Shown one piece after another: positions 5,701 to 34,732 of a DNA stretch of 64,000 nucleotides. The DNA comes from Caulobacteraceae bacterium (GTDB taxonomy: Bacteria > Pseudomonadota > Alphaproteobacteria > Caulobacterales > Caulobacteraceae). The notes under the pieces were generated by a model. It searched no databases and had not been told where the DNA came from. It worked only from the letters and a program-made list of their open reading frames with translations. Position numbers and translations under genes: made by a program. Within the stretch, counting starts at the first letter, position 1. Every line of letters begins with the position of its first letter. The stretch covers positions 549 to 64,548 of the forward strand of contig JBIIZD010000002.1 of the NCBI GenBank assembly GCA_044346445.1, read 5' to 3'.

Positions 5701-7028
5701 GCGGGGTCTTTGTCCTACAAAGGTTTTTGGATGGTGCAGCGCGGCTCTTGAGTCCGGTGCGAGCCAGTGATGGGCCGGGCAAGCCGGGCCTGTTGGTCTC
5801 GCCCCTGGCTGTGCCGTTTCCGAACATACTGCCAATCGAAGGCGTTGAGATCGCGATTGGCCGGGCGGGTTATTATAAACATCAGCGCGATGACGTCCTG
5901 GTCATGCGCTTTGCTGAAGGCACGACCTGCGCCGGTGTGTTTACCCGTCATGCGGTGGGCTCGGCACCGGTGGACTGGTGCAAGCGCCAGCTTGAGGCCT
6001 CGGGCGGCGAGGATATCCGCGCCCTGGTGGTCAATGCCGGCTGTGCCAATGCCTTTACCGGCAAGCCAGGTGCCGATGCGGCCCGGCGCGTGGCCTCGGC
6101 CGTAGCAAAGCGGCTGGATATTCGCCAGCGCGATATCATGCTGGCCTCGACAGGGGTGATCGGGGTGGTGCTGGACGATGCCAAGCTCACCGCCCGCCTG
6201 CCAGAGCTTGAGGCCGAACTGGACGGCGGGCAAAGGACCTGGGCCAATGCGGCCCAGGCGATCATGACCACCGACACCTTTGCCAAGGGCGCTTTTGCCA
6301 CGGCCATGATCGAGGGCGTGCCCGTGCGCATCGCCGGGATCACCAAGGGCTCTGGCATGATTGCGCCGGACATGGCCACCATGCTGGCCTTTATTGCCAC
6401 CGATGCCGCCATAGCGCCCGCCGCCCTGCAGGCCCTGGTCAGCCTCTATACCCGCACCACCTTTAACGGGGTTACGGTCGATGGGGATACCTCGACCAAT
6501 GATACCTGCCTGCTGTTTGCCACGGGCAAGGCCGGTGCGCCCAGGATTGCCCGGGCCGGGGATCGCAGACTGGCCGATTTTCGCGAAAAGCTGGAACAGG
6601 TCATGCTCGATCTGGCGCTGCAACTCGTGCGCGACGGCGAGGGGGCCAGCAAGTTTGTCAAGATCACGGTCAATGGCGCCCAGTCGCCCGCCTCGGCGCG
6701 CAAGATTGCCAAGACGGTGGCCGAATCGCCCCTGGTCAAGACCGCCTTTGCCGGAGAAGACGCCAATTGGGGCCGGATTGTCATGGCCGTTGGCCGCGCC
6801 GATGAGCCAATCAATCGCGCGCGTCTGGGCATAAGGTTTGGCGATCTGATTGCTGCGGTCGATGGCGCGGTCTCGCCCGGCTATGACGAGGCGGCCATGA
6901 GCGCCTATATGAAAAACGCCGAGCTCGAGGTCAGTGTCGATGTCGGGGTCGGCCGGTCCAGCGCCTCGGTCTGGACCTGTGACCTGACCAAGCGGTATAT
7001 CGAGATCAATGGCGATTACAGAAGCTAA
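5697..7028 (+). CDS. argJ: bifunctional glutamate N-acetyltransferase / amino-acid acetyltransferase ArgJ
   Basis: Motifs ITKGSGMIAPDMATML (autoprocessing T) and DGDTSTNDT, ending YIEINGDYRS. The ATG overlaps the upstream stop (ATGA). The true start could be slightly downstream, since the first ~30 aa are not family-like. Confidence 0.9.
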   Translation: MSGVFVLQRFLDGAARLLSPVRASDGPGKPGLLVSPLAVPFPNILPIEGVEIAIGRAGYYKHQRDDVLVMRFAEGTTCAGVFTRHAVGSAPVDWCKRQLEASGGEDIRALVVNAGCANAFTGKPGADAARRVASAVAKRLDIRQRDIMLASTGVIGVVLDDAKLTARLPELEAELDGGQRTWANAAQAIMTTDTFAKGAFATAMIEGVPVRIAGITKGSGMIAPDMATMLAFIATDAAIAPAALQALVSLYTRTTFNGVTVDGDTSTNDTCLLFATGKAGAPRIARAGDRRLADFREKLEQVMLDLALQLVRDGEGASKFVKITVNGAQSPASARKIAKTVAESPLVKTAFAGEDANWGRIVMAVGRADEPINRARLGIRFGDLIAAVDGAVSPGYDEAAMSAYMKNAELEVSVDVGVGRSSASVWTCDLTKRYIEINGDYRS

Positions 7029-7434
7029 GCCCGCCCTGCCTTTGGTTCTGGTCGTGGCCTGCGCCCTGGTCGATACAGACGGCCGGGTGCTGATCTGCAA
7101 GCGCCCCGAAGGCAAGGCGCTAGCGGGCCTTTGGGAATTTCCCGGCGGCAAGGTCGAGCCGGGCGAGGGGCCAGAAGCGGCCCTGATCCGCGAAATGCAC
7201 GAAGAACTGGGCATTACGATTACCGCCAGTTGCCTGGCCCCATTCGTATTTGCCTCACACAGCTATGAGACCTTTCACCTTCTGATGCCGCTTTATCTGT
7301 GTCGGCGCTGGGAGGGGGTGGTGGTGGCCAAGGAACATGCGGCGCTCGCCTGGGTCAAACCCAACGCCCTCAGCACCTATGCCATGCCCCCCGCAGACGC
7401 GCCACTGGTCGCCTATCTGCGCGATTTTTTGTAG
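7009..7434 (+). CDS. mutT: NUDIX hydrolase, MutT-like 8-oxo-dGTP diphosphatase
   Basis: Nudix box GLWEFPGGKVEPGEGPEAALIREMHEELGI. 141 aa. Overlaps the argJ 3' end by 20 nt. Confidence 0.85.
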   Translation: MAITEAKPALPLVLVVACALVDTDGRVLICKRPEGKALAGLWEFPGGKVEPGEGPEAALIREMHEELGITITASCLAPFVFASHSYETFHLLMPLYLCRRWEGVVVAKEHAALAWVKPNALSTYAMPPADAPLVAYLRDFL

Positions 7435-7455
7435 ATTACTGAGGCTCAGGGGGTC

Positions 7456-7692
7456 TTGCTCGCTCCCAAGCCAGTTCAAGCCTGCGCCGTGCTGGAGGCC
7501 TGGTGGCGAGACCATAACGCACTGCAGCCACACTCGAAGCTCGGCTGGATGACACCGAGGGCCTATGCCAGCGCCTTATCCGCACAAACCCGCGACCGCG
7601 CTGCGCAGCCTAGAGGTGCCGCTGGGACGCCTCTTGCCAAACACACCAATGAAGGGTCAACTTACGGTAGGGCTCTCGTTGTGGTGGGGTGA
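7456..7692 (+). pseudogene. IS3-family transposase (OrfB / rve integrase core) C-terminal remnant
   Basis: The only recognisable part is ..VLEAWWRDHNALQPHSKLGWMTPRAYA.., matching the W..YN..RPHS.LG..TP..(F/Y) tail of DDE rve transposases. The catalytic core is missing, and the fragment begins right after the mutT stop. Confidence 0.6.
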
Positions 7693-7723
7693 GATATGGG
7701 GGTCAGGTCAATTGGTGCCAGAT
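7691..7723. repeat. left inverted repeat of the retron cassette (IS-end-like GGGGGTCAGGTCA)
   Basis: gagatatgggggtcaggtcaattggtgccagat aligns with the reverse complement of 9803-9835 (gagtttcagggggtcatgtcaatggtcgcagct). About 26 of 34 positions match with 2 single-nt indels. A third partial copy, gggggtgacgtca, lies at 7728-7740. Confidence 0.6.
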
Positions 7724-7796
7724 TTTTGGGGGTGACGTCACACGGCAGCCTCCGTTGCTCGGTCCTATTACTCCGCTTTAGTCTGTACAAACTTAG

Positions 7797-9569
7797 TTAG
7801 TTTGGCGGACTATAATGCTCGAGAACCGCGTTGATGCTTTCCAGAATGGGGGCGAACCCAGTCCAGTTCAAACTGGCAGCCTCCGGACGAATTATCCTCT
7901 CAGCGAAAATATGTTTTCCAAACTCTTTCGTTATATCGAGTTTATTTGGGTTGAATGTTTTTCCATTCAATTGTTTTACCCGTATCGCATGATCGAACAT
8001 GTCTTCAATGCAGGTTTTGATTTGTTTTCCAACATGTGGGGTCTTCACCACATAGAGGTTGTCAGTAATGTGGTAAAAATTCTCTTTCGATTCAACAGTG
8101 ATGTTTTTTTTATAATTTTCTTTAATGCAAAGAAATAGTTTCGTTGCTCCGTCGTCATTGTCGAGAAGAATTATAACTGGGTGCAGCTGTGGCCTGTGAC
8201 CAAACCCGAGCATGTGCTTATTATAGTCCTTTATGAGAGATTTAAAGTTTCCAGAGCCGCCATTTAACTCTAGGACGGAGCGGGTTTTATTATGATGATT
8301 AAATAATCGGAGCTTATTAACAAAACCATCTGACGTCATATACCCGAGTTTTGGTTGAAATTCAGGAGAGTATTTTATAGCAAGAGATAAATAAACATTG
8401 TCAGTTTTTCCTTCAGTAATTATTAGTGGTTTATCCAGTGTGACAAAATTTTTGTAAAATAGGAATTTGAAGTAGAGATTTCGAAATGCTGTCTTTAATT
8501 TCCGTTTTTTAATTTCATCGCGTGGATCGATCTCATTTTTAACATAGTGAATGTGGGCTAGCCTGCCTGTTAGGGGACCAAGAGATTTTGTAAGAGACTT
8601 ATGCGACAGGGAGGTAGTAGCTATTTCAGGCACCATCTCAACTGCCTCAGATTTCGTAACAACCTCCACGGCTGGTTTCAACAAAGCTCGCGGATGATCA
8701 ATCCAGTATTCCCCCCTCTTGAACAACGCATCGCACATCGCTCGCGTAAAGCGGTAATAATCGGACTGGACATTGACCTTCTGATTGACCGTCAAACCAG
8801 TAACGATCTTGCGAGACATCCCACATTGCATGCGGGTTTTTTCCGGTTTCACGGTAAAATAAGTATCTTTTATCCGCTTAGCTAAATCTGGGCCGAGGTC
8901 CCACTTTCCCGCTACAATCGGATCCTGAATTGCTACCGCTTCGGGGAACGTTTTTTGGTTGGTCGAGAAGGTGATATCGTCCGCATAGCGTGAATATGTA
9001 ATCCTCTCCTTCTTCGCGAGTTGCGCCAAACGAACATCAAGCAAATGGGTGATTAGGTCTGCAATCACTGGTGAGCATGGACTGCCTTGTGGAAGCTGGT
9101 TGTCATAACATGCGATCTGAGCAATGAGCGTTGCCACCTTGTCATTCAATGCGAACGCTCTGTTTTTTATAAAAAATCCCCGCACCCGCCCGAAATTGAA
9201 AGTCGGGAAAAAATCTTTTAGGTCTAGATTGAAGACGTAACGCCTACGCTGATGCGGCTTGGCATTGGTTACTATTGAGTGACCACGACGAAACCCGTGT
9301 GACAACGAAGCGAGACCGCTCTCTCTGTCGATCTCCGCGCGACACGCGTAGAGAAGATTAGCTAGGCGTCGTTGTAATAGTTTCAATTGAGCGGTCGGGG
9401 CGCATATGTCTCGTACACCGCCGTTTTTTTTAGGGATTTGGAAGCGTTCGTACTTTTCGGACGGATCAAGCTTGTAAAGGATGAATGCGAGTGCATCCGG
9501 CCTGTACCCGAGTAAGGCCGATAGGTCTTTAATGTTGGTTGCTGATTTAAGTTTTTTTAGAGAGGACAC
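7797..9569 (-). CDS. retron-type reverse transcriptase fused to a C-terminal Toprim domain (Ec67 / Retron-Eco2-like architecture)
   Basis: 590 aa with a GTG start. RT motifs: NAKPH (aa 102-106), LDLKDFFPTF, LPQGSPCSP, YADD (aa 195-198) and the retron-typical RKIVTGLTVN (VTG, aa 256-258). The C-terminal part has LIITEGKTD (E386) and ILLDNDDG (aa 470-473), the Toprim E and DxD signatures. Confidence 0.88.
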   Translation of the reverse strand: MSSLKKLKSATNIKDLSALLGYRPDALAFILYKLDPSEKYERFQIPKKNGGVRDICAPTAQLKLLQRRLANLLYACRAEIDRESGLASLSHGFRRGHSIVTNAKPHQRRRYVFNLDLKDFFPTFNFGRVRGFFIKNRAFALNDKVATLIAQIACYDNQLPQGSPCSPVIADLITHLLDVRLAQLAKKERITYSRYADDITFSTNQKTFPEAVAIQDPIVAGKWDLGPDLAKRIKDTYFTVKPEKTRMQCGMSRKIVTGLTVNQKVNVQSDYYRFTRAMCDALFKRGEYWIDHPRALLKPAVEVVTKSEAVEMVPEIATTSLSHKSLTKSLGPLTGRLAHIHYVKNEIDPRDEIKKRKLKTAFRNLYFKFLFYKNFVTLDKPLIITEGKTDNVYLSLAIKYSPEFQPKLGYMTSDGFVNKLRLFNHHNKTRSVLELNGGSGNFKSLIKDYNKHMLGFGHRPQLHPVIILLDNDDGATKLFLCIKENYKKNITVESKENFYHITDNLYVVKTPHVGKQIKTCIEDMFDHAIRVKQLNGKTFNPNKLDITKEFGKHIFAERIIRPEAASLNWTGFAPILESINAVLEHYSPPN

Positions 9570-9591
9570 GGAGTTGGTGCCTTACTTTGCA

Positions 9592-9731
9592 TGGCTTACA
9601 GGCACTCCTACGCGATCATCGAACCATTCGACTGTAATCGGTCAAACGGCAATAAGGGTCATCGGGAAGCAACGACTACTGGCATCGCTTCATATGTCGC
9701 GAAGCGCGACAACAAATCTGCCTGTAAGCCA
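9592..9731 (-). ncRNA. candidate retron msr-msd non-coding RNA (a1/a2-flanked)
   Basis: A perfect 13-bp inverted repeat, tggcttacaggca (9592-9604) / tgcctgtaagcca (9719-9731), encloses 114 nt and ends 22 nt upstream of the RT start on the same strand. A G (9718) follows a1 directly. Two hairpins in the 5' half (9696-9710 and 9666-9691) pair fully only in the minus-strand RNA, through G-U pairs. Confidence 0.65.
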
Positions 9732-9737
9732 CACCAC

Positions 9738-9766
9738 TCACTACGAAACCAAAAGTTATTTTACAA
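9738..9766 (-). promoter_or_regulatory. candidate promoter for the retron transcript
   Basis: On the minus strand: TTGTAA (9766-9761), a 17-nt spacer, then TAGTGA (9743-9738). This would place the TSS at about 9731, the first base of a1. The -10 is weak. An alternative -10, TAAAAT, sits at 9763-9758. Hexamer matching only. Confidence 0.3.
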
Positions 9767-9802
9767 GCTTTAGTTTAAGAGAGAAATGCGGGGGGCGGGA
9801 AC

Positions 9803-9835
9803 AGCTGCGACCATTGACATGACCCCCTGAAACTC
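9803..9835. repeat. right inverted repeat of the retron cassette (IS-end-like TGACATGACCCCC)
   Basis: See 7691-7723. Read on the + strand, TGACATGACCCCCTGAAAC looks like the outer end of an IS3-family element. Confidence 0.6.
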
Positions 9836-9873
9836 ATCCTAAATGCTCTTCAGTCCGCTCCAAGGGGCCGCCC

Positions 9874-11502
9874 CTACAGCTTCTCGCGCTTTAACTTGAT
9901 GCCGGCGGCTTCGCGGTCCCAGGTGTCGGGGGTGATGGCGTCCTTGCGCAGCTTGGCCTTGATGACCTTGGCGGTGGGGGTCTTGGGCAGTTCGTCGAGT
10001 ATGCGGATATAGCGCGGGACCATGAAATAGGGCAGGCGGCCTTCTAGAAAGCTGATCAGCTCAGCCTTGTCGATACTGCGGCCTGGCACCGGCGCGATCA
10101 CGGCCATGACCTCGTCTTCGGAATAGGCGCTTGGCACGCCGATCACGGCGGCTTCGCGCACATCGGGATGGGCGACAATATCGTTCTCGACCTCAAAGGA
10201 TGAGATGTTTTCGCCGCGGCGGCGGATGGCGTCTTTTACCCGGTCGACAAAGTAATAATAGCCGTCCTCGTCGCGCTTAAAGGCGTCGCCGGTGTGGAAC
10301 CAGCCATTGCGCCAGGCCTTGGCCGTGGCCTCTGGATTATTGTGATAGCCGCTATTCATGGCAAAGGGCCGGTCGGTGCGCACCAGCATTTCGCCAACCG
10401 CGCCGATGGCAACCTCGCAGTCATTTTCATCGACCAGCCGCACATCCACGCCGCGCCGCACCGTGCCGCAAGTGCCCGGTTTGACCGGATTGGGATCAGA
10501 CACAATCGGAGACGAGATCTCGGTCATGTTGAAAATCGTATAAATATCAATGCCAAACCGGTCATGGAACGGGCCAGACACCTCGGTCAGGGGCACCATG
10601 AGGGCTGTGCGCACCTTGTGGGCGCGGTCGGCGTCGCTGGGCGGGTTCTTGATCAGGAAGGTGGCCATGACGCCCAGAAGGAAGATCGAGGTGCACTCGG
10701 TCTTGCGCACAAAATCCCAGAAGGTATCGGTCGAGAAATTCTCCATCAGGGCAATTGATCCGCCCCTTGCCAGCATCACAAAGGGCAGGCCCAGCCCGCC
10801 AATATGGAAGATGGGCATATTGACCAAGAACCGGTCTTCGCCGGTGATAAACGGCCAGCTATCGGGGCCTGCATTGGTATAGAGGTGCAGATAGGACGAC
10901 AAGACGCCCTTGGATGGTCCGGTCGTGCCCGAGGTATAGATCACCGACTGGGTGTCCCAAGGCTCGATAGGCCGGGCCAGCGGCGCAAGCTCGTCCTCGG
11001 TGCCAGTCAGGCTTTCAAACGCGCTGGCGCTAAACCGCGCCGGGGCCTGGCCATCGCCCAGCACCACCACATGACGCACGGCGGCGGCATCAGCATCCTC
11101 CAGACGCTCCAATAGGCCCGCATGCGCAATCAGCAGGCGGGCATCGGAATTTTTGAGCACATGCTCCAGGATCGCGCCGCGATAGGCCGTGTTAAACGGC
11201 ACAAACACCGCGCCCAGATAATTGATCGCATAAAAGGTCAATAAGGCCTGGTGGCAATTGGGCAGCCATACCGCGACATGATCGCCCTGTTTGACGCCAA
11301 GCTTTTGCAGGCCAACGGCCACGGCAATGGTTTGGGTTCTAAGCTGGCTATAGGTCCAGTGACTGCCATCCTCGAACACGGCATAGACCTGATCGCCGCG
11401 CTCCTGGTCCATCCTGTCCATCAGGTCGCGCAGCACGCAGACCGCGCGGTTAGGCACGCGATGGTCGCCATGCTTGGCATTGGAGAGGGTAGTGGATGTC
11501 AT
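9874..11502 (-). CDS. AMP-dependent acyl-CoA synthetase/ligase
   Basis: 542 aa. AMP-binding motifs IYTSGTTGPSKGV, GWFHTGD and the C-terminal PKTPTAKVIK. Confidence 0.9.
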   Translation of the reverse strand: MTSTTLSNAKHGDHRVPNRAVCVLRDLMDRMDQERGDQVYAVFEDGSHWTYSQLRTQTIAVAVGLQKLGVKQGDHVAVWLPNCHQALLTFYAINYLGAVFVPFNTAYRGAILEHVLKNSDARLLIAHAGLLERLEDADAAAVRHVVVLGDGQAPARFSASAFESLTGTEDELAPLARPIEPWDTQSVIYTSGTTGPSKGVLSSYLHLYTNAGPDSWPFITGEDRFLVNMPIFHIGGLGLPFVMLARGGSIALMENFSTDTFWDFVRKTECTSIFLLGVMATFLIKNPPSDADRAHKVRTALMVPLTEVSGPFHDRFGIDIYTIFNMTEISSPIVSDPNPVKPGTCGTVRRGVDVRLVDENDCEVAIGAVGEMLVRTDRPFAMNSGYHNNPEATAKAWRNGWFHTGDAFKRDEDGYYYFVDRVKDAIRRRGENISSFEVENDIVAHPDVREAAVIGVPSAYSEDEVMAVIAPVPGRSIDKAELISFLEGRLPYFMVPRYIRILDELPKTPTAKVIKAKLRKDAITPDTWDREAAGIKLKREKL

Positions 11503-11617
11503 GGCTGCGCCCCATATTAGCAGTCGGGTAGAAAAATCTACTAGGCCAAGGGCAGCCTACTGTCTTAGCACTGGCGCGGCAATGGTGCGGGCGGATGCGC
11601 GTGCAGATTTGTCGGGT

Positions 11618-12298
11618 CTAGTTGCGTGCGCGCAGCGTAATCTTCATGACCATATGGATGGCATCCATCACCACCTCGGTCGCTGACCAGCGCCCGCCCT
11701 CGTGATACCAGTTGGCAATCCAGCTGAGCAGGCCGCTGATCCAGATCGCGGCGCGCGAGGCGTCTTCAAACTCAAACTCGCCCGCAGCCTTGCCCTTTTG
11801 CAAAAGGGTGCTGAGCTTTTGATCAAATTGGTGACGCAGCAGGCGGATACGCCGGGCCTCATCAGGCTCCAGGCTCATTTCTTCGCGCTGATAGACGCTG
11901 ATATAGCGCTGGTTTTCGATAATGATCCGCGCCACCCGCTCAACCACCATTTTCAACTGCTCGGTCGCCGTGCCGTCAACGGCCAAGGCATCTTCCAGCG
12001 CGCTGAGCGATAGCTGAATGCCGGTCTGGCAGATCTCGAACAATAGCTCGCTCTTATTGCGATAATAGGAATAGATGAAGGGCTTGGTGACCTGGAGTTG
12101 CTCGGCAACGGCGTCCAGGGTCGTGGCCTCATAGCCGTGTTTGAAGAACAGAAGGCTGGCTTCTTCGACAATGCGCCGACGCTTATAGGCGGCAATCTCG
12201 TTCTTGAGCGGTGCGGTCTGTCGCTTGGCCGCCTTGGCATCGATCATGGATTTAGGTTCCGCAAGAAAGGCGTGAGCCACCCGATTAGGTTGCCTCAC
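11618..12298 (-). CDS. TetR family transcriptional regulator
   Basis: N-terminal HTH (RRRIVEEASLLFFKHGYEATTLDAVAEQLQVTKPFIYSYYRNK). The start may instead be the internal Met at about 12247. Confidence 0.85.
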   Translation of the reverse strand: MRQPNRVAHAFLAEPKSMIDAKAAKRQTAPLKNEIAAYKRRRIVEEASLLFFKHGYEATTLDAVAEQLQVTKPFIYSYYRNKSELLFEICQTGIQLSLSALEDALAVDGTATEQLKMVVERVARIIIENQRYISVYQREEMSLEPDEARRIRLLRHQFDQKLSTLLQKGKAAGEFEFEDASRAAIWISGLLSWIANWYHEGGRWSATEVVMDAIHMVMKITLRARN

Positions 12299-31922: not shown

Positions 31923-33110
31923 ATGAAACTCACCGATATCAAGACCTTTGTCGTTGGCAATCCGCCGCCGCATTTTGGCGGGCGCTATTTTGTCTTCGTC
32001 AAGCTGACCACGGACAGCAATGTTTCGGGCATTGGCGAGGCCTATTGCGTGCCGTTCTCGCCGCATCTGGTCGCCAAGATGATCGAGGATGTGTTTGAGC
32101 GCTATGTGCGCGGCTGTGACCCGCACGATATTGAGGTCATGTGGCGCCGGGTCTATTCGTCCGGCTTTACCCAGCATCCCGACCTGTCCTTGATGGGCGT
32201 CTTGAGTGCGCTGGAAATGGCCTGCTGGGACATTATCGGCAAGGAGGCCAATAAGCCGGTCTATAAGCTGCTCGGCGGTCAGGTGCATGAGCGGCTGCGA
32301 TCCTACACATACATCTATCCGCGTCCCGGCGATAAGACCGATGTCTATCACGACCCCGATCTGGCCGCCGAGCGAGCGCAGGAATATCTGGGCCGCGGCT
32401 ATACGGCGCTGAAATTTGATCCGGCTGGGCCCTATAGCGCCTTTGATGGTCGCCAATTATCGCTAGAGGCGCTGGACCTGTCCGAGCGCTTTGCCAAGAC
32501 CATGCGCGAGGCGGTTGGCACCAAGGCCGACCTCTTGTTTGGCACCCATGGCCAGATGACCGCCGCCGGGGCCATTCGTCTGGCCAAGCGGCTCGAGCCC
32601 TATGACCCCCTATGGCTCGAAGAACCCATTCCGCCAGATGCCCCCGACGAAATGGCCAAGGTGGCGCGGGCAACCAGTATTCCTGTCGCCACGGGCGAGC
32701 GCCTGACCACCAAATACGATTTCCACCGGCTGTTGCAGGCGGGAGCGGCCTCTATTTTGCAAATGAATCTGGGCCGGGTTGGCGGTATATTGGAAGCCAA
32801 AAAGATTGCTGGCATGGCCGAGGCCTATCACGCCCAGATCGCGCCGCACCTCTATTGCGGCCCGATTGTCGGGGCCGCCAATATCCAGATCGCCACCTGC
32901 TCGCCCAACTTCCTGATCCTGGAAAGTATTGAATACTGGCAAGGCTTCCATGCTGACATCTTGATGAAGCCGGTTCAGTGGCAAGATGGCTATGTCATCC
33001 CCTCTGCCGAGCCGGGTCTTGGCGTTGAGCTGAATGAGGCGGTGGCCCTGGCCAATCCCTATACCGGCCACATGCTGCATCTGGACATGACGGGGCATCC
33101 GGTCGTTTGA
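31923..33110 (+). CDS. enolase-superfamily enzyme (mandelate racemase / acid-sugar dehydratase-like)
   Basis: ATG 31923 (MKLTDIKTFVVGNPPPHFGGRYFVFVKLTTDSNVSGIGEAY). Metal-ligand region ..LWLEEP.. and ..ATGERL... Confidence 0.85.
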   Translation: MKLTDIKTFVVGNPPPHFGGRYFVFVKLTTDSNVSGIGEAYCVPFSPHLVAKMIEDVFERYVRGCDPHDIEVMWRRVYSSGFTQHPDLSLMGVLSALEMACWDIIGKEANKPVYKLLGGQVHERLRSYTYIYPRPGDKTDVYHDPDLAAERAQEYLGRGYTALKFDPAGPYSAFDGRQLSLEALDLSERFAKTMREAVGTKADLLFGTHGQMTAAGAIRLAKRLEPYDPLWLEEPIPPDAPDEMAKVARATSIPVATGERLTTKYDFHRLLQAGAASILQMNLGRVGGILEAKKIAGMAEAYHAQIAPHLYCGPIVGAANIQIATCSPNFLILESIEYWQGFHADILMKPVQWQDGYVIPSAEPGLGVELNEAVALANPYTGHMLHLDMTGHPVV

Positions 33111-34732
33111 TGGACAGTTTTGATTATGTGATTGTCGGGGCAGGCACCGCTGGCTGTGTCGTGGCCAGCCGCCTGTCTGAGGACGGCAAGGCCAATGTCC
33201 TGGTGCTGGAAGCGGGCGGCACCGACCGCACGGTCTGGATCCAATTGCCGATCGGCTATGGCCGCACCTTCTTCGACCGGTCGATCAACTGGATGTATGA
33301 CACGCAGGTCGAGTCCAATCTGGCTGGCCGCACCAGCTATTGGCCGCGCGGCAAGGTGATTGGTGGCTCTGGCTCGATCAATGCCATGGTCTATGTCCGG
33401 GGACGGCCCGAAGACTTCGAAGACTGGAAGGCCATGGGCAATAGCGGTTGGGGCTGGGACGATGTCCTGCCCTATTTTCGCAAGTCCGAGGATCATGATG
33501 GCGGCGAGACCAGCCATCACGGCAAGGGCGGCCCGATCCATGTCACCGATATTTCCAAGCGCGCCCATCCGATCTGCCAGACCTTTATCGAGACGGCCAA
33601 GGGGCTGGGCTATGCCTATACGCCCGACTTTAACGGCCCGTCTGGCGAGGGCGTCGGCATTTATCAGATCAATACCGATAAGGGCTTTCGTGCCTCCAGC
33701 GCCAATGCCTTTTTGCGCCCGGCCCTGCGCCGCAAAAACCTGACCCTGCGCGCCAAGGCTCAGGTCACGCGCATCCTGTTTGAAGGCAAGACCGCTGTCG
33801 GTCTTGAATACCGCCAAGGCGGCAAGCTGCACGCGGTGCGGGCCAGGCGCGAGGTGATCTTGTGCGGCGGCACGATCAATTCGCCGCAATTATTGCAGGT
33901 TTCCGGCATTGGCGACGGCGCCTTGCTGCGCGGTCTTGGCATACCGGTCGTGCATGACGCCCGGGCTGTGGGCCAGAACCTGCAAGACCATCTGGCTGTG
34001 TCTTATTTCTACAAGTGCAGCGTCCCAACCTTGAATGACCAGCTTGGCCCCTGGCATGGCAAGGTCAAGGCGGGCCTGCACTATCTGCTCAATCGCGGCG
34101 GCCCCTTATCCATGAGCGTCAACCAAGGCGGCGGCTTTTTGCGCTCTAGCCCCGATAAGACCCGCCCCGACCTACAGCTCTATTTCAGCCCGGTCAGCTA
34201 TACCCAGACCTCGCTGGCCAAGCGTGAACTGCTTAATCCCGATCCATTTTCGGCGTTTTTGCTGTCGTTTAATGCTTGCCGTCCGACCAGCCGTGGCCAT
34301 CTGGCCATTACCTCGCCGGACCCGTCCGTCTATCCCTCGATCAAACCCAATTATTTATCGACCGATAAGGATGTCAGCGACGCTGTGATTGGCAATCGGC
34401 TCTTGCGCACCATAGCCGCCAGCGCGCCCCTGTCCGATATCATCACCGAAGAACTGGTGCCGGGCACCCATCTGAAGACCGATCAGGAACTGCTCGACGA
34501 TTTTCGCAAGCGCGCCGATACGGTCTATCATCCGGTTGGCACCTGTATGATGGGCCTTGATCCGGCCCTGTCGGTGGTTGATGCGCGGCTCAAGGTGCAC
34601 GGGATCGCGCGCTTGCGAATTATTGACGCTTCGATCTTTCCGACCGTCACATCCGGCAATACCAATGCCCCGACGGTCATGGTGGCGGAAAAGGGCGCGG
34701 CCATGGTGCTGGAAGATGCGCATCTGACCTAG
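33110..34732 (+). CDS. GMC family oxidoreductase (choline dehydrogenase-like)
   Basis: N-terminal FAD fold DYVIVGAGTAGCVVASRLSED, GGSGSINAMVY, and C-terminal HPVGTCMMG. The ATG overlaps the upstream TGA (TGATG). Confidence 0.9.
   Translation: MDSFDYVIVGAGTAGCVVASRLSEDGKANVLVLEAGGTDRTVWIQLPIGYGRTFFDRSINWMYDTQVESNLAGRTSYWPRGKVIGGSGSINAMVYVRGRPEDFEDWKAMGNSGWGWDDVLPYFRKSEDHDGGETSHHGKGGPIHVTDISKRAHPICQTFIETAKGLGYAYTPDFNGPSGEGVGIYQINTDKGFRASSANAFLRPALRRKNLTLRAKAQVTRILFEGKTAVGLEYRQGGKLHAVRARREVILCGGTINSPQLLQVSGIGDGALLRGLGIPVVHDARAVGQNLQDHLAVSYFYKCSVPTLNDQLGPWHGKVKAGLHYLLNRGGPLSMSVNQGGGFLRSSPDKTRPDLQLYFSPVSYTQTSLAKRELLNPDPFSAFLLSFNACRPTSRGHLAITSPDPSVYPSIKPNYLSTDKDVSDAVIGNRLLRTIAASAPLSDIITEELVPGTHLKTDQELLDDFRKRADTVYHPVGTCMMGLDPALSVVDARLKVHGIARLRIIDASIFPTVTSGNTNAPTVMVAEKGAAMVLEDAHLT

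Follow-up and report, generated by a model that had tools for sequence, protein, structure and literature searches.

A very probable msr-msd RNA gene of the Ec67/Eco2 (type I-C) retron family upstream of an intact RT-Toprim gene in a high-GC bacterial genome

Retrons of the Ec67/Eco2 type are known bacterial anti-phage systems. Retron-Eco2 (Ec67) of E. coli belongs to type I-C1 and has been solved structurally (PDB 9I2F/9I2G/9S1F and 9LM3). Synthesis of the Eco2 msDNA is primed at the 2'-OH of G15, the branching nucleotide (PMC12916289), and in the Eco2 structure it terminates at the base pair G52:dC67 of the 67-nt msDNA. According to cryo-EM, the Eco2 msDNA is without the hairpin proposed for it; instead, base pairing connects the subunits through a three-way junction. 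One consensus msr-msd structure was described by Mestre et al. (2020; PMC7736814) for RT clade 8, to which type I-C belongs. The ends of RT-DNA currently have to be determined empirically. Type XI (RT-protease) and type XII (RT-TIR) retrons of the same clade have a related RT and carry a protease or TIR as the C-terminal effector, whereas retrons of the Ec86 type (Eco1, type II-A) encode their effector separately and, as retron ncRNAs are generally described, possess a long stable msd stem-loop.

The window studied here is the whole analyzed stretch of 64,000 nucleotides, and judging by its closest relatives it comes from an apparently alphaproteobacterial, high-GC host. Positions 9591-9732 of its minus strand very probably constitute an msr-msd ncRNA gene belonging to an Ec67/Eco2-family retron (type I-C), with the GTG start of an RT-Toprim gene (at 9569) 22 nt 3' of the a2 repeat (Table 1). 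The 590-aa product of this gene matched Pfam RVT_1 and, over residues 1-587, the PADLOC model RT-Toprim_I-C ("single gene"; E = 7.7e-215). The protein of Retron Ec67/Eco2 (PDB chains 9i2f/9lm3) aligned with it at E = 1.2e-113 (residues 2-587 against 5-581), and the closest homologues from isolates are named by NCBI "retron Ec67 family RNA-directed DNA polymerase/endonuclease". In the alignment of 49 homologues, the RT motif YADD (195-198) was invariant, as were the retron RT signature motifs NAxxH and VTG (N102-A-x-x-H106 and V256-T257-G) and the Toprim residues E386, D390, D470 and D472 (E386-G-K-T-D390 and D470-N-D472). The latter four match E374, D378, D460 and D462 of Eco2, mutation of which abolished RNase activity in the Eco2 study. 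The Toprim motifs fit the definition of subtypes I-C1 and I-C3 (EGxxD and DxD, with DxE marking I-C2; Mestre et al. 2020, PMC7736814), I-C1 and I-C3 not being separated from each other. Judged by its sequence, the RT-Toprim protein is intact and of full length, with all catalytic residues present. No second effector gene was found, nor any ORF of the same strand further downstream of the RT gene.

Like Eco2, the locus combines a single RT-Toprim protein of equal length, with the same domain order and catalytic residues, with an ncRNA directly upstream of the RT gene and on its strand. As the two proteins are only about 40% identical, the window system may have a trigger and RNA targets other than those of Eco2. 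The RT models of types XI and XII were also matched (PADLOC, E from 1e-94 to 2e-96), but the effector in the window is a Toprim with a full-length match to the Toprim model. With Ec86, the window shares the a1/a2 stem, the branching G, msr hairpins and the order of ncRNA first and RT gene second; however, its RT is distant from that of Ec86 (E = 1e-28), its effector is fused to the RT, and its msd is without a strong DNA stem.

Table 1. Features of the retron locus in the window (transcript sense on the minus strand; ncRNA features listed before the promoter and protein gene)
Feature	Position	Strand	Remark
Very probable msr-msd ncRNA gene, type I-C retron	9591-9732	minus	stretch originally flagged: 9592-9731, 140 bases
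a1, 5' arm of the terminal inverted repeat, UGGCUUACAGGCA	9731-9719	minus	perfect 13-nt complement of 9592-9604
Predicted branching G	9718	minus	directly 3' of a1; its 2'-OH would prime cDNA synthesis
msr hairpin 1, 7 bp	9711-9695	minus	conserved UUCG/AUCG-type loop; covariation
Hairpin 2, 9 bp including two G.U pairs	9691-9666	minus	present in the MFE fold
Predicted msd template	9606-9683	minus	from A9606 to ~G9683; ends transferred from Ec67
Invariant GAGU at the msd/a2 junction (putative priming site)	9604-9607	minus	67 sequences
a2, 3' arm of the terminal inverted repeat, UGCCUGUAAGCCA	9604-9592	minus	pairs with a1
Putative -35 hexamer, TTGTAA	9766-9761	minus	CTTG invariant in 10 close relatives
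Putative -10 hexamer, TAGTGA	9743-9738	minus	TA invariant in close relatives
Retron RT-Toprim fusion gene, 590 aa, GTG start	7797-9569	minus	single-gene type I-C effector

The coordinates and sequences given in the preliminary description were all correct on the minus strand, and the perfect a1/a2 repeat that it reported was reproduced by an independent inverted-repeat search (13-nt arms, 100% complementary, 114 nt enclosed). The core of hairpin 1 (9710-9696) is lengthened by one extra U-A pair to the limits given in Table 1, and this is probably the RT recognition hairpin. Hairpin 2, with its G.U pairs G9686.U9671 and U9684.G9673, is separated from a2 by about 60 nt with weak self-pairing. 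Folding of the minus-strand RNA 9580-9745, which had been suggested as a check, gave -65.4 kcal/mol (z = -4.56; 0 of 200 shuffles as good), the a1/a2 stem lengthening to 16 bp via G.U pairs. The fold of the plus strand reached -48.2 kcal/mol and was therefore 17 kcal/mol worse, which bears out the earlier suggestion that the ncRNA fold is specific to the minus strand. Two plus-strand ORFs, 9481-9822 (113 aa) and 9591-9773 (60 aa), run across the ncRNA and the beginning of the RT gene; with a conserved RNA encoded opposite them, they are most likely spurious.

It should be noted that the 13-nt inverted repeat by itself is weak evidence, as it lies within chance expectation. Under first-order Markov models of the window, perfect 13-nt inverted repeats with loops of 60-200 nt occurred on average 0.35 times per simulated 64 kb, and at least one was found in 25% of the simulations. 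The window contains a second such repeat (34503-34515 / 34607-34619, 91-nt loop), enclosed in the plus-strand ORF 33107-34732, whose 541-aa product presumably resembles a GMC-type oxidoreductase, as judged by eye. This repeat was without a retron model match and was taken as a chance occurrence. It is the position of the retron repeat and its conservation in the family that place the ncRNA feature far beyond chance.

The homologous loci were obtained by a profile scan from the 49-protein alignment with one genome per species, which yielded 80 RT-Toprim loci from many phyla, and the 300 nt upstream of the RT were searched for inverted repeats in the 72 loci having upstream DNA. An a1/a2 repeat followed by a G was present at a constant offset from the RT start in 66 of these 72 loci; a1 began about 140-170 nt and a2 ended about 15-25 nt before the RT start, and the residues after a1 were G, mostly GAUU. 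Compensatory variants of the arms included GGCUUACAGGCA, GGCUUGCGGGCA, GCCUACAGCCA and GUCUGCGGACA. In the MAFFT alignment of the window with the 66 loci (67 sequences), double-sided changes were found in 11 of 11 a1/a2 pairs and in 7 of 7 hairpin 1 pairs. The proportion of paired cells was 98.4% for a1/a2, 97.7% for hairpin 1 and 98.1% for all 18 pairs, the a1/a2 value being inflated because the sequences were cut with the best inverted repeat as anchor. This bias affects neither hairpin 1 nor the covariance model matches in six loci that failed the repeat search. When the partners were slid by 1-3 columns as a control, 28.6-44.6% of the cells were paired, and 0 of 500 shuffles reached any of the observed measures. 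On the evidence of this alignment, the a1/a2 stem and msr hairpin 1 have been maintained by compensatory substitutions. The preliminary description had proposed conservation of the a1/a2 pairing and of the G in homologues as a test of its reading, and the outcome (66/72 loci and 18/18 pairs) is strongly positive. The A14-G15 column, into which G9718 falls, was invariant both in the 67 and in the 68 sequences, and the motif GCnUAGGAGU, which surrounds the GAGU invariant in the 67 sequences, was nearly so. Among the close relatives, the mean nucleotide identity was 80% for the ncRNA, 67% for the RT gene and 37% for the DNA upstream of a1.

A covariance model, R1, was constructed from the 66 homologous loci and the E. 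coli Ec67 sequence, the window being left out. In the 64 kb of the window, on both strands, its sole match was 9591-9732 (minus), with 99.7 bits and E = 5.3e-24, against a range of 59.9-110.6 bits among the family members. Matches were obtained in 72 of the 80 loci, in every case on the strand of the RT and upstream of it, and included the six loci outside the training set that had failed the repeat search; of the eight loci without a match, six have no upstream DNA because their contigs stop within the RT gene. The model also matched, with 95-103 bits, each of eight close relatives (60-71% protein identity to the window) that had been retrieved independently from metagenomes and genomes. The scan with Rfam covariance models recommended in the preliminary description (Rfam 15, positions 7000-12000, E up to 10) gave no family on the ncRNA, and its three chance-level matches all lay away from it; this only shows that Rfam is without a matching model.

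The Ec67 ncRNA sequence used for comparison was found with 100% identity in each of 14 complete E. coli genomes, where it is located at the 5' end of an annotated Ec67-family RT gene in a P2-like prophage. It aligned end to end with the 66 loci, with its G15 in the invariant G column, so that G9718 is the homologue of the proven branching G, in agreement with the role assigned to it from the outset. The layout common to Ec67 and the window comprises, in the 5' part, a1, AGA with the branching G and a U-rich linker; in the middle part, hairpin 1 with a UCG-containing loop and UGAA..AAUG; and in the 3' part, a variable msd, GCnnAGGAGU and a2. The whole-length alignment of the ncRNA and the full-length homology of the protein thus uphold both the original interpretation as an msr-msd ncRNA and its likeness to Ec67, and the RNA of the window is shown to be a homologue of the Ec67 ncRNA. 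Predicted by analogy are the production of msDNA, the position of its ends, its 2'-5' branch and the site at which transcription starts.

Given the stop of Eco2 synthesis at G52:dC67 and the length of 67 nt, the first template base in Ec67 is A118, which belongs to the invariant GAGU, while its neighbor G119 is unpaired beside a2 (the numbering was verified on the Ec67 sequence). By transfer of these ends, the msDNA of the window probably corresponds to the plus strand 9606-9683 (5'-TCCTACGCGATC...ACTACTGGC-3'), with a length of about 78 nt compared with 67 nt in Ec67 and a 3' end good to within a few nucleotides, and G9605 probably stays unpaired opposite the branch G. The 5' end is therefore probably one base inward of position 9605, which had been proposed earlier, and the msd length of 55-65 nt assumed at that time is replaced by this longer estimate. 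Reverse transcription would probably continue as far as about G9683; since the 3' end would thus lie inside the 5' arm of hairpin 2, this hairpin would be part msr and part msd.

In the distant relatives and in Ec67, the second hairpin begins directly 3' of the AAUG site, whereas in the window it is shifted 5' and spans the predicted termination site. The register in which hairpin 2 had been described could not be extended to the whole family: only 25 of 68 sequences pair the segment ending at the equivalent of Ec67 G52, and by this count the register in the window is specific to its subclade. Hairpin 2 is retained in 10 close relatives, with one compensation (G-C to A-U) and several one-sided changes, and its apical part in the window is decayed relative to these. 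The register shift together with the apical decay makes the termination point transferred from Ec67 uncertain.

The weak msd stem had been regarded either as a real peculiarity of this locus or as a sign of wrong boundaries. The stem is indeed weak: the DNA 9605-9670 (plus) folds with -5 kcal/mol (z = +0.26) and the predicted msDNA of the window with -5.9 kcal/mol (z = +0.78). The corresponding values are -6.2 kcal/mol (z = 0.0) for the Ec67 msDNA and a median of -8 kcal/mol (median z = -0.64 against mononucleotide shuffles) for the predicted msDNAs of 68 loci folded as DNA, which on average are thus no more structured than shuffled sequence. No significant msd stem, as DNA or as RNA, was found in the window or in the family, and the long stable msd stem-loop of the general retron definition is absent from the window, Ec67 and the family alike. 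As Ec67 and the family are equally weak, wrong boundaries were rejected as the cause; the weakness is real but family-wide, and these folds together with the Eco2 cryo-EM data make it a trait of the family. Absent throughout the characterized subfamily, the stem-loop does not count against membership in type I-C. In the subclade of the window, an RNA-level stem with several G.U pairs is predicted in the msd template, and since G.U pairs become A.C mismatches in the cDNA, such a stem would be lost in the cDNA. It is conceivable, although we regard it as rather doubtful, that the type I-C msd encodes no hairpin-forming DNA, the msDNA serving as a largely unstructured or intermolecularly paired scaffold and the RNA stem serving template presentation or chaperone binding. 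On such a reading, the msDNA may be under some sequence constraint, by analogy with the Eco2 three-way junction.

In the DNA upstream of a1, alignment among the 10 close relatives is limited to CTTG and to a TA that follows 17-18 nt later. When 76 loci were stacked on the ncRNA start, TTG peaked at -34 to -32 and TGnTAnnnT at -14 to -6. These comparisons show a conserved promoter-like signal whose spacing to a1 is constant. In the window, the spacer between the putative hexamers TTGTAA and TAGTGA is 17 nt, which together with the hexamers predicts that transcription starts at about 9731, where a1 begins. A generic sigma-70 scan called no promoter upstream of a1, the proposed site included, and a terminator scan called none after the RT gene; the putative promoter is proposed on grounds of conservation.

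The mechanism is most likely that of Eco2 (PMC12916289). By analogy, the transcript starting at about 9731 would fold so that a1/a2 place G9718 beside the template end. The RT would bind the msr hairpin, prime from the 2'-OH of G9718 and copy from A9606 to about G9683, which would yield the msDNA of about 78 nt joined 2'-5' to an msr RNA of about 55 nt. The msDNA would then keep the RT-Toprim subunits as a trimer and cage the Toprim active site. Degradation of the msDNA by phage nucleases such as DenB would free the Toprim RNase, which would cut tRNAs and stop translation, resulting in defense of the abortive-infection type.

The retron cassette forms a low-GC island (GC of 0.33-0.50, compared with 0.60-0.66 in the flanks) and, unlike Ec67, lies outside any P2-like prophage. 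A short plus-strand ORF (7456-7692) between the gene 7009-7434, which we take by eye to be NUDIX/MutT-like, and the 3' end of the RT gene contains a remnant of about 25 aa (AWWRDHNALQPHSKLGWMTPRAYA) of the C-terminus of what is presumably an rve-type (IS3-like) transposase. On either side of the island lies one arm of an imperfect inverted repeat, about 40 nt long (7687-7726, plus; 9800-9839, minus), whose core GGGGGTCAkGTCAAT is exact at 7698-7712 (plus) and 9813-9827 (minus), and a third partial copy, TGAGGCTCAGGGGGTCTTG, is present at 7440-7458, just after the NUDIX gene. The motif was absent from all 90 related loci, and no target-site duplication was seen by eye in the flanks of the island. 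These repeats may have been left behind by the element with which the retron arrived.

Uncharacterized type I-C retrons of alphaproteobacteria were found in Xanthobacter variabilis, Hartmannibacter diazotrophicus, Brevundimonas spp. and metagenomic relatives, with identities to the window of 60-71% for the protein and 75-85% for the ncRNA. The hairpin 2 register, the msd RNA stem and the CTTG...TA promoter signal are common to these relatives and the window; however, the relatives have other genomic neighborhoods, several beside defense genes, and the hairpin 2 apex of the window has diverged. The neighbors of three close relatives (L083, L087 and L088) include other defense or anti-defense genes, namely, DUF3800 with Fic/DUF4172, AbiJ_NTD3/Abi_C, and ArdA, which suggests defense-island contexts for these three, whereas the window has housekeeping flanks.

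The surroundings of the cassette raise the question of whether the ncRNA, although a genuine retron RNA by descent, is a decaying, non-functional relic in a foreign island that may have ceased to produce msDNA or to protect the cell. The low GC content of the island, the transposase remnant at 7456-7692, the degraded apex of hairpin 2 and a -10 hexamer without the usual final T are all in line with decay. Meanwhile, the RT-Toprim ORF is unbroken and of full length and has every catalytic and invariant residue, all invariant RNA positions are kept, and the R1 score lies inside the range of the family; decay into a relic is accordingly considered improbable. The same debris of mobile elements, with other inverted repeats at the edges of a horizontally acquired island, could be taken to mean that the 13-nt repeats are the terminal repeats of a small MITE- or IS-like element and not an RNA stem. 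In transposon ends, however, the sequence itself would be conserved, and neither a fixed G nor an internal hairpin would be retained, whereas the repeats studied change in a compensatory manner, at positions fixed relative to the RT gene in many phyla. Moreover, the G.U pairs make the fold strand-specific, and the R1 search found no further copy of the 140-nt unit in the window, so that a transposon origin of the repeats deserves hardly any credence.

Equally remote is the explanation that the region never undergoes reverse transcription and is either a chance repeat or, as part of the RT mRNA, a structured 5' leader or attenuator. The expected number of such repeats per 64 kb, the occurrence of another inside a gene of the window and the lack of an Rfam match would be compatible with it, but the homology extends over the full length of the Ec67 ncRNA, for which the msDNA and the branch point have been established experimentally, the branch G and the GAGU of the priming site are invariant, and the covariation spans 67 loci. 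Thus, interpretation as the msr-msd ncRNA of a type I-C retron is preferred, and the locus is an ordinary, uncharacterized addition to a known family for which a structure has been solved.

The locus adds one confidently annotated type I-C retron to those known. The limits of its ncRNA, the branch G, the predicted msDNA and the promoter are specified with sufficient precision for cloning and testing. The current understanding of retrons is unchanged by it. The by-products at the level of the family may outweigh the locus itself: R1 recovers 72 of 80 loci where Rfam gave nothing here, the AGA and GAGU priming elements are invariant, the promoter signal is positional, and weak self-structure of the msd is general in the type I-C family, consistent with the cryo-EM structure of Eco2.

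In the locus of Sphingomonas silueang (L059), the R1 match (1077-1217) and the RT match (from 2501) are about 1.3 kb apart, and the RT match starts only at residue 30, which suggests either that DNA has been inserted between the two or that the 5' end of the RT gene is disrupted. The Ec67-family RT CDS annotated in RefSeq for E. coli NZ_CP027440 (2990-4930 of L081) encodes 646 aa and overlaps the ncRNA, nearly all records of this kind being annotated by PGAP, and the 614-aa gene call of a metagenomic homologue (339-2183 of L086) overlaps it as well. RT gene calls that begin upstream of or inside the ncRNA show a systematic over-extension of the N-terminus.
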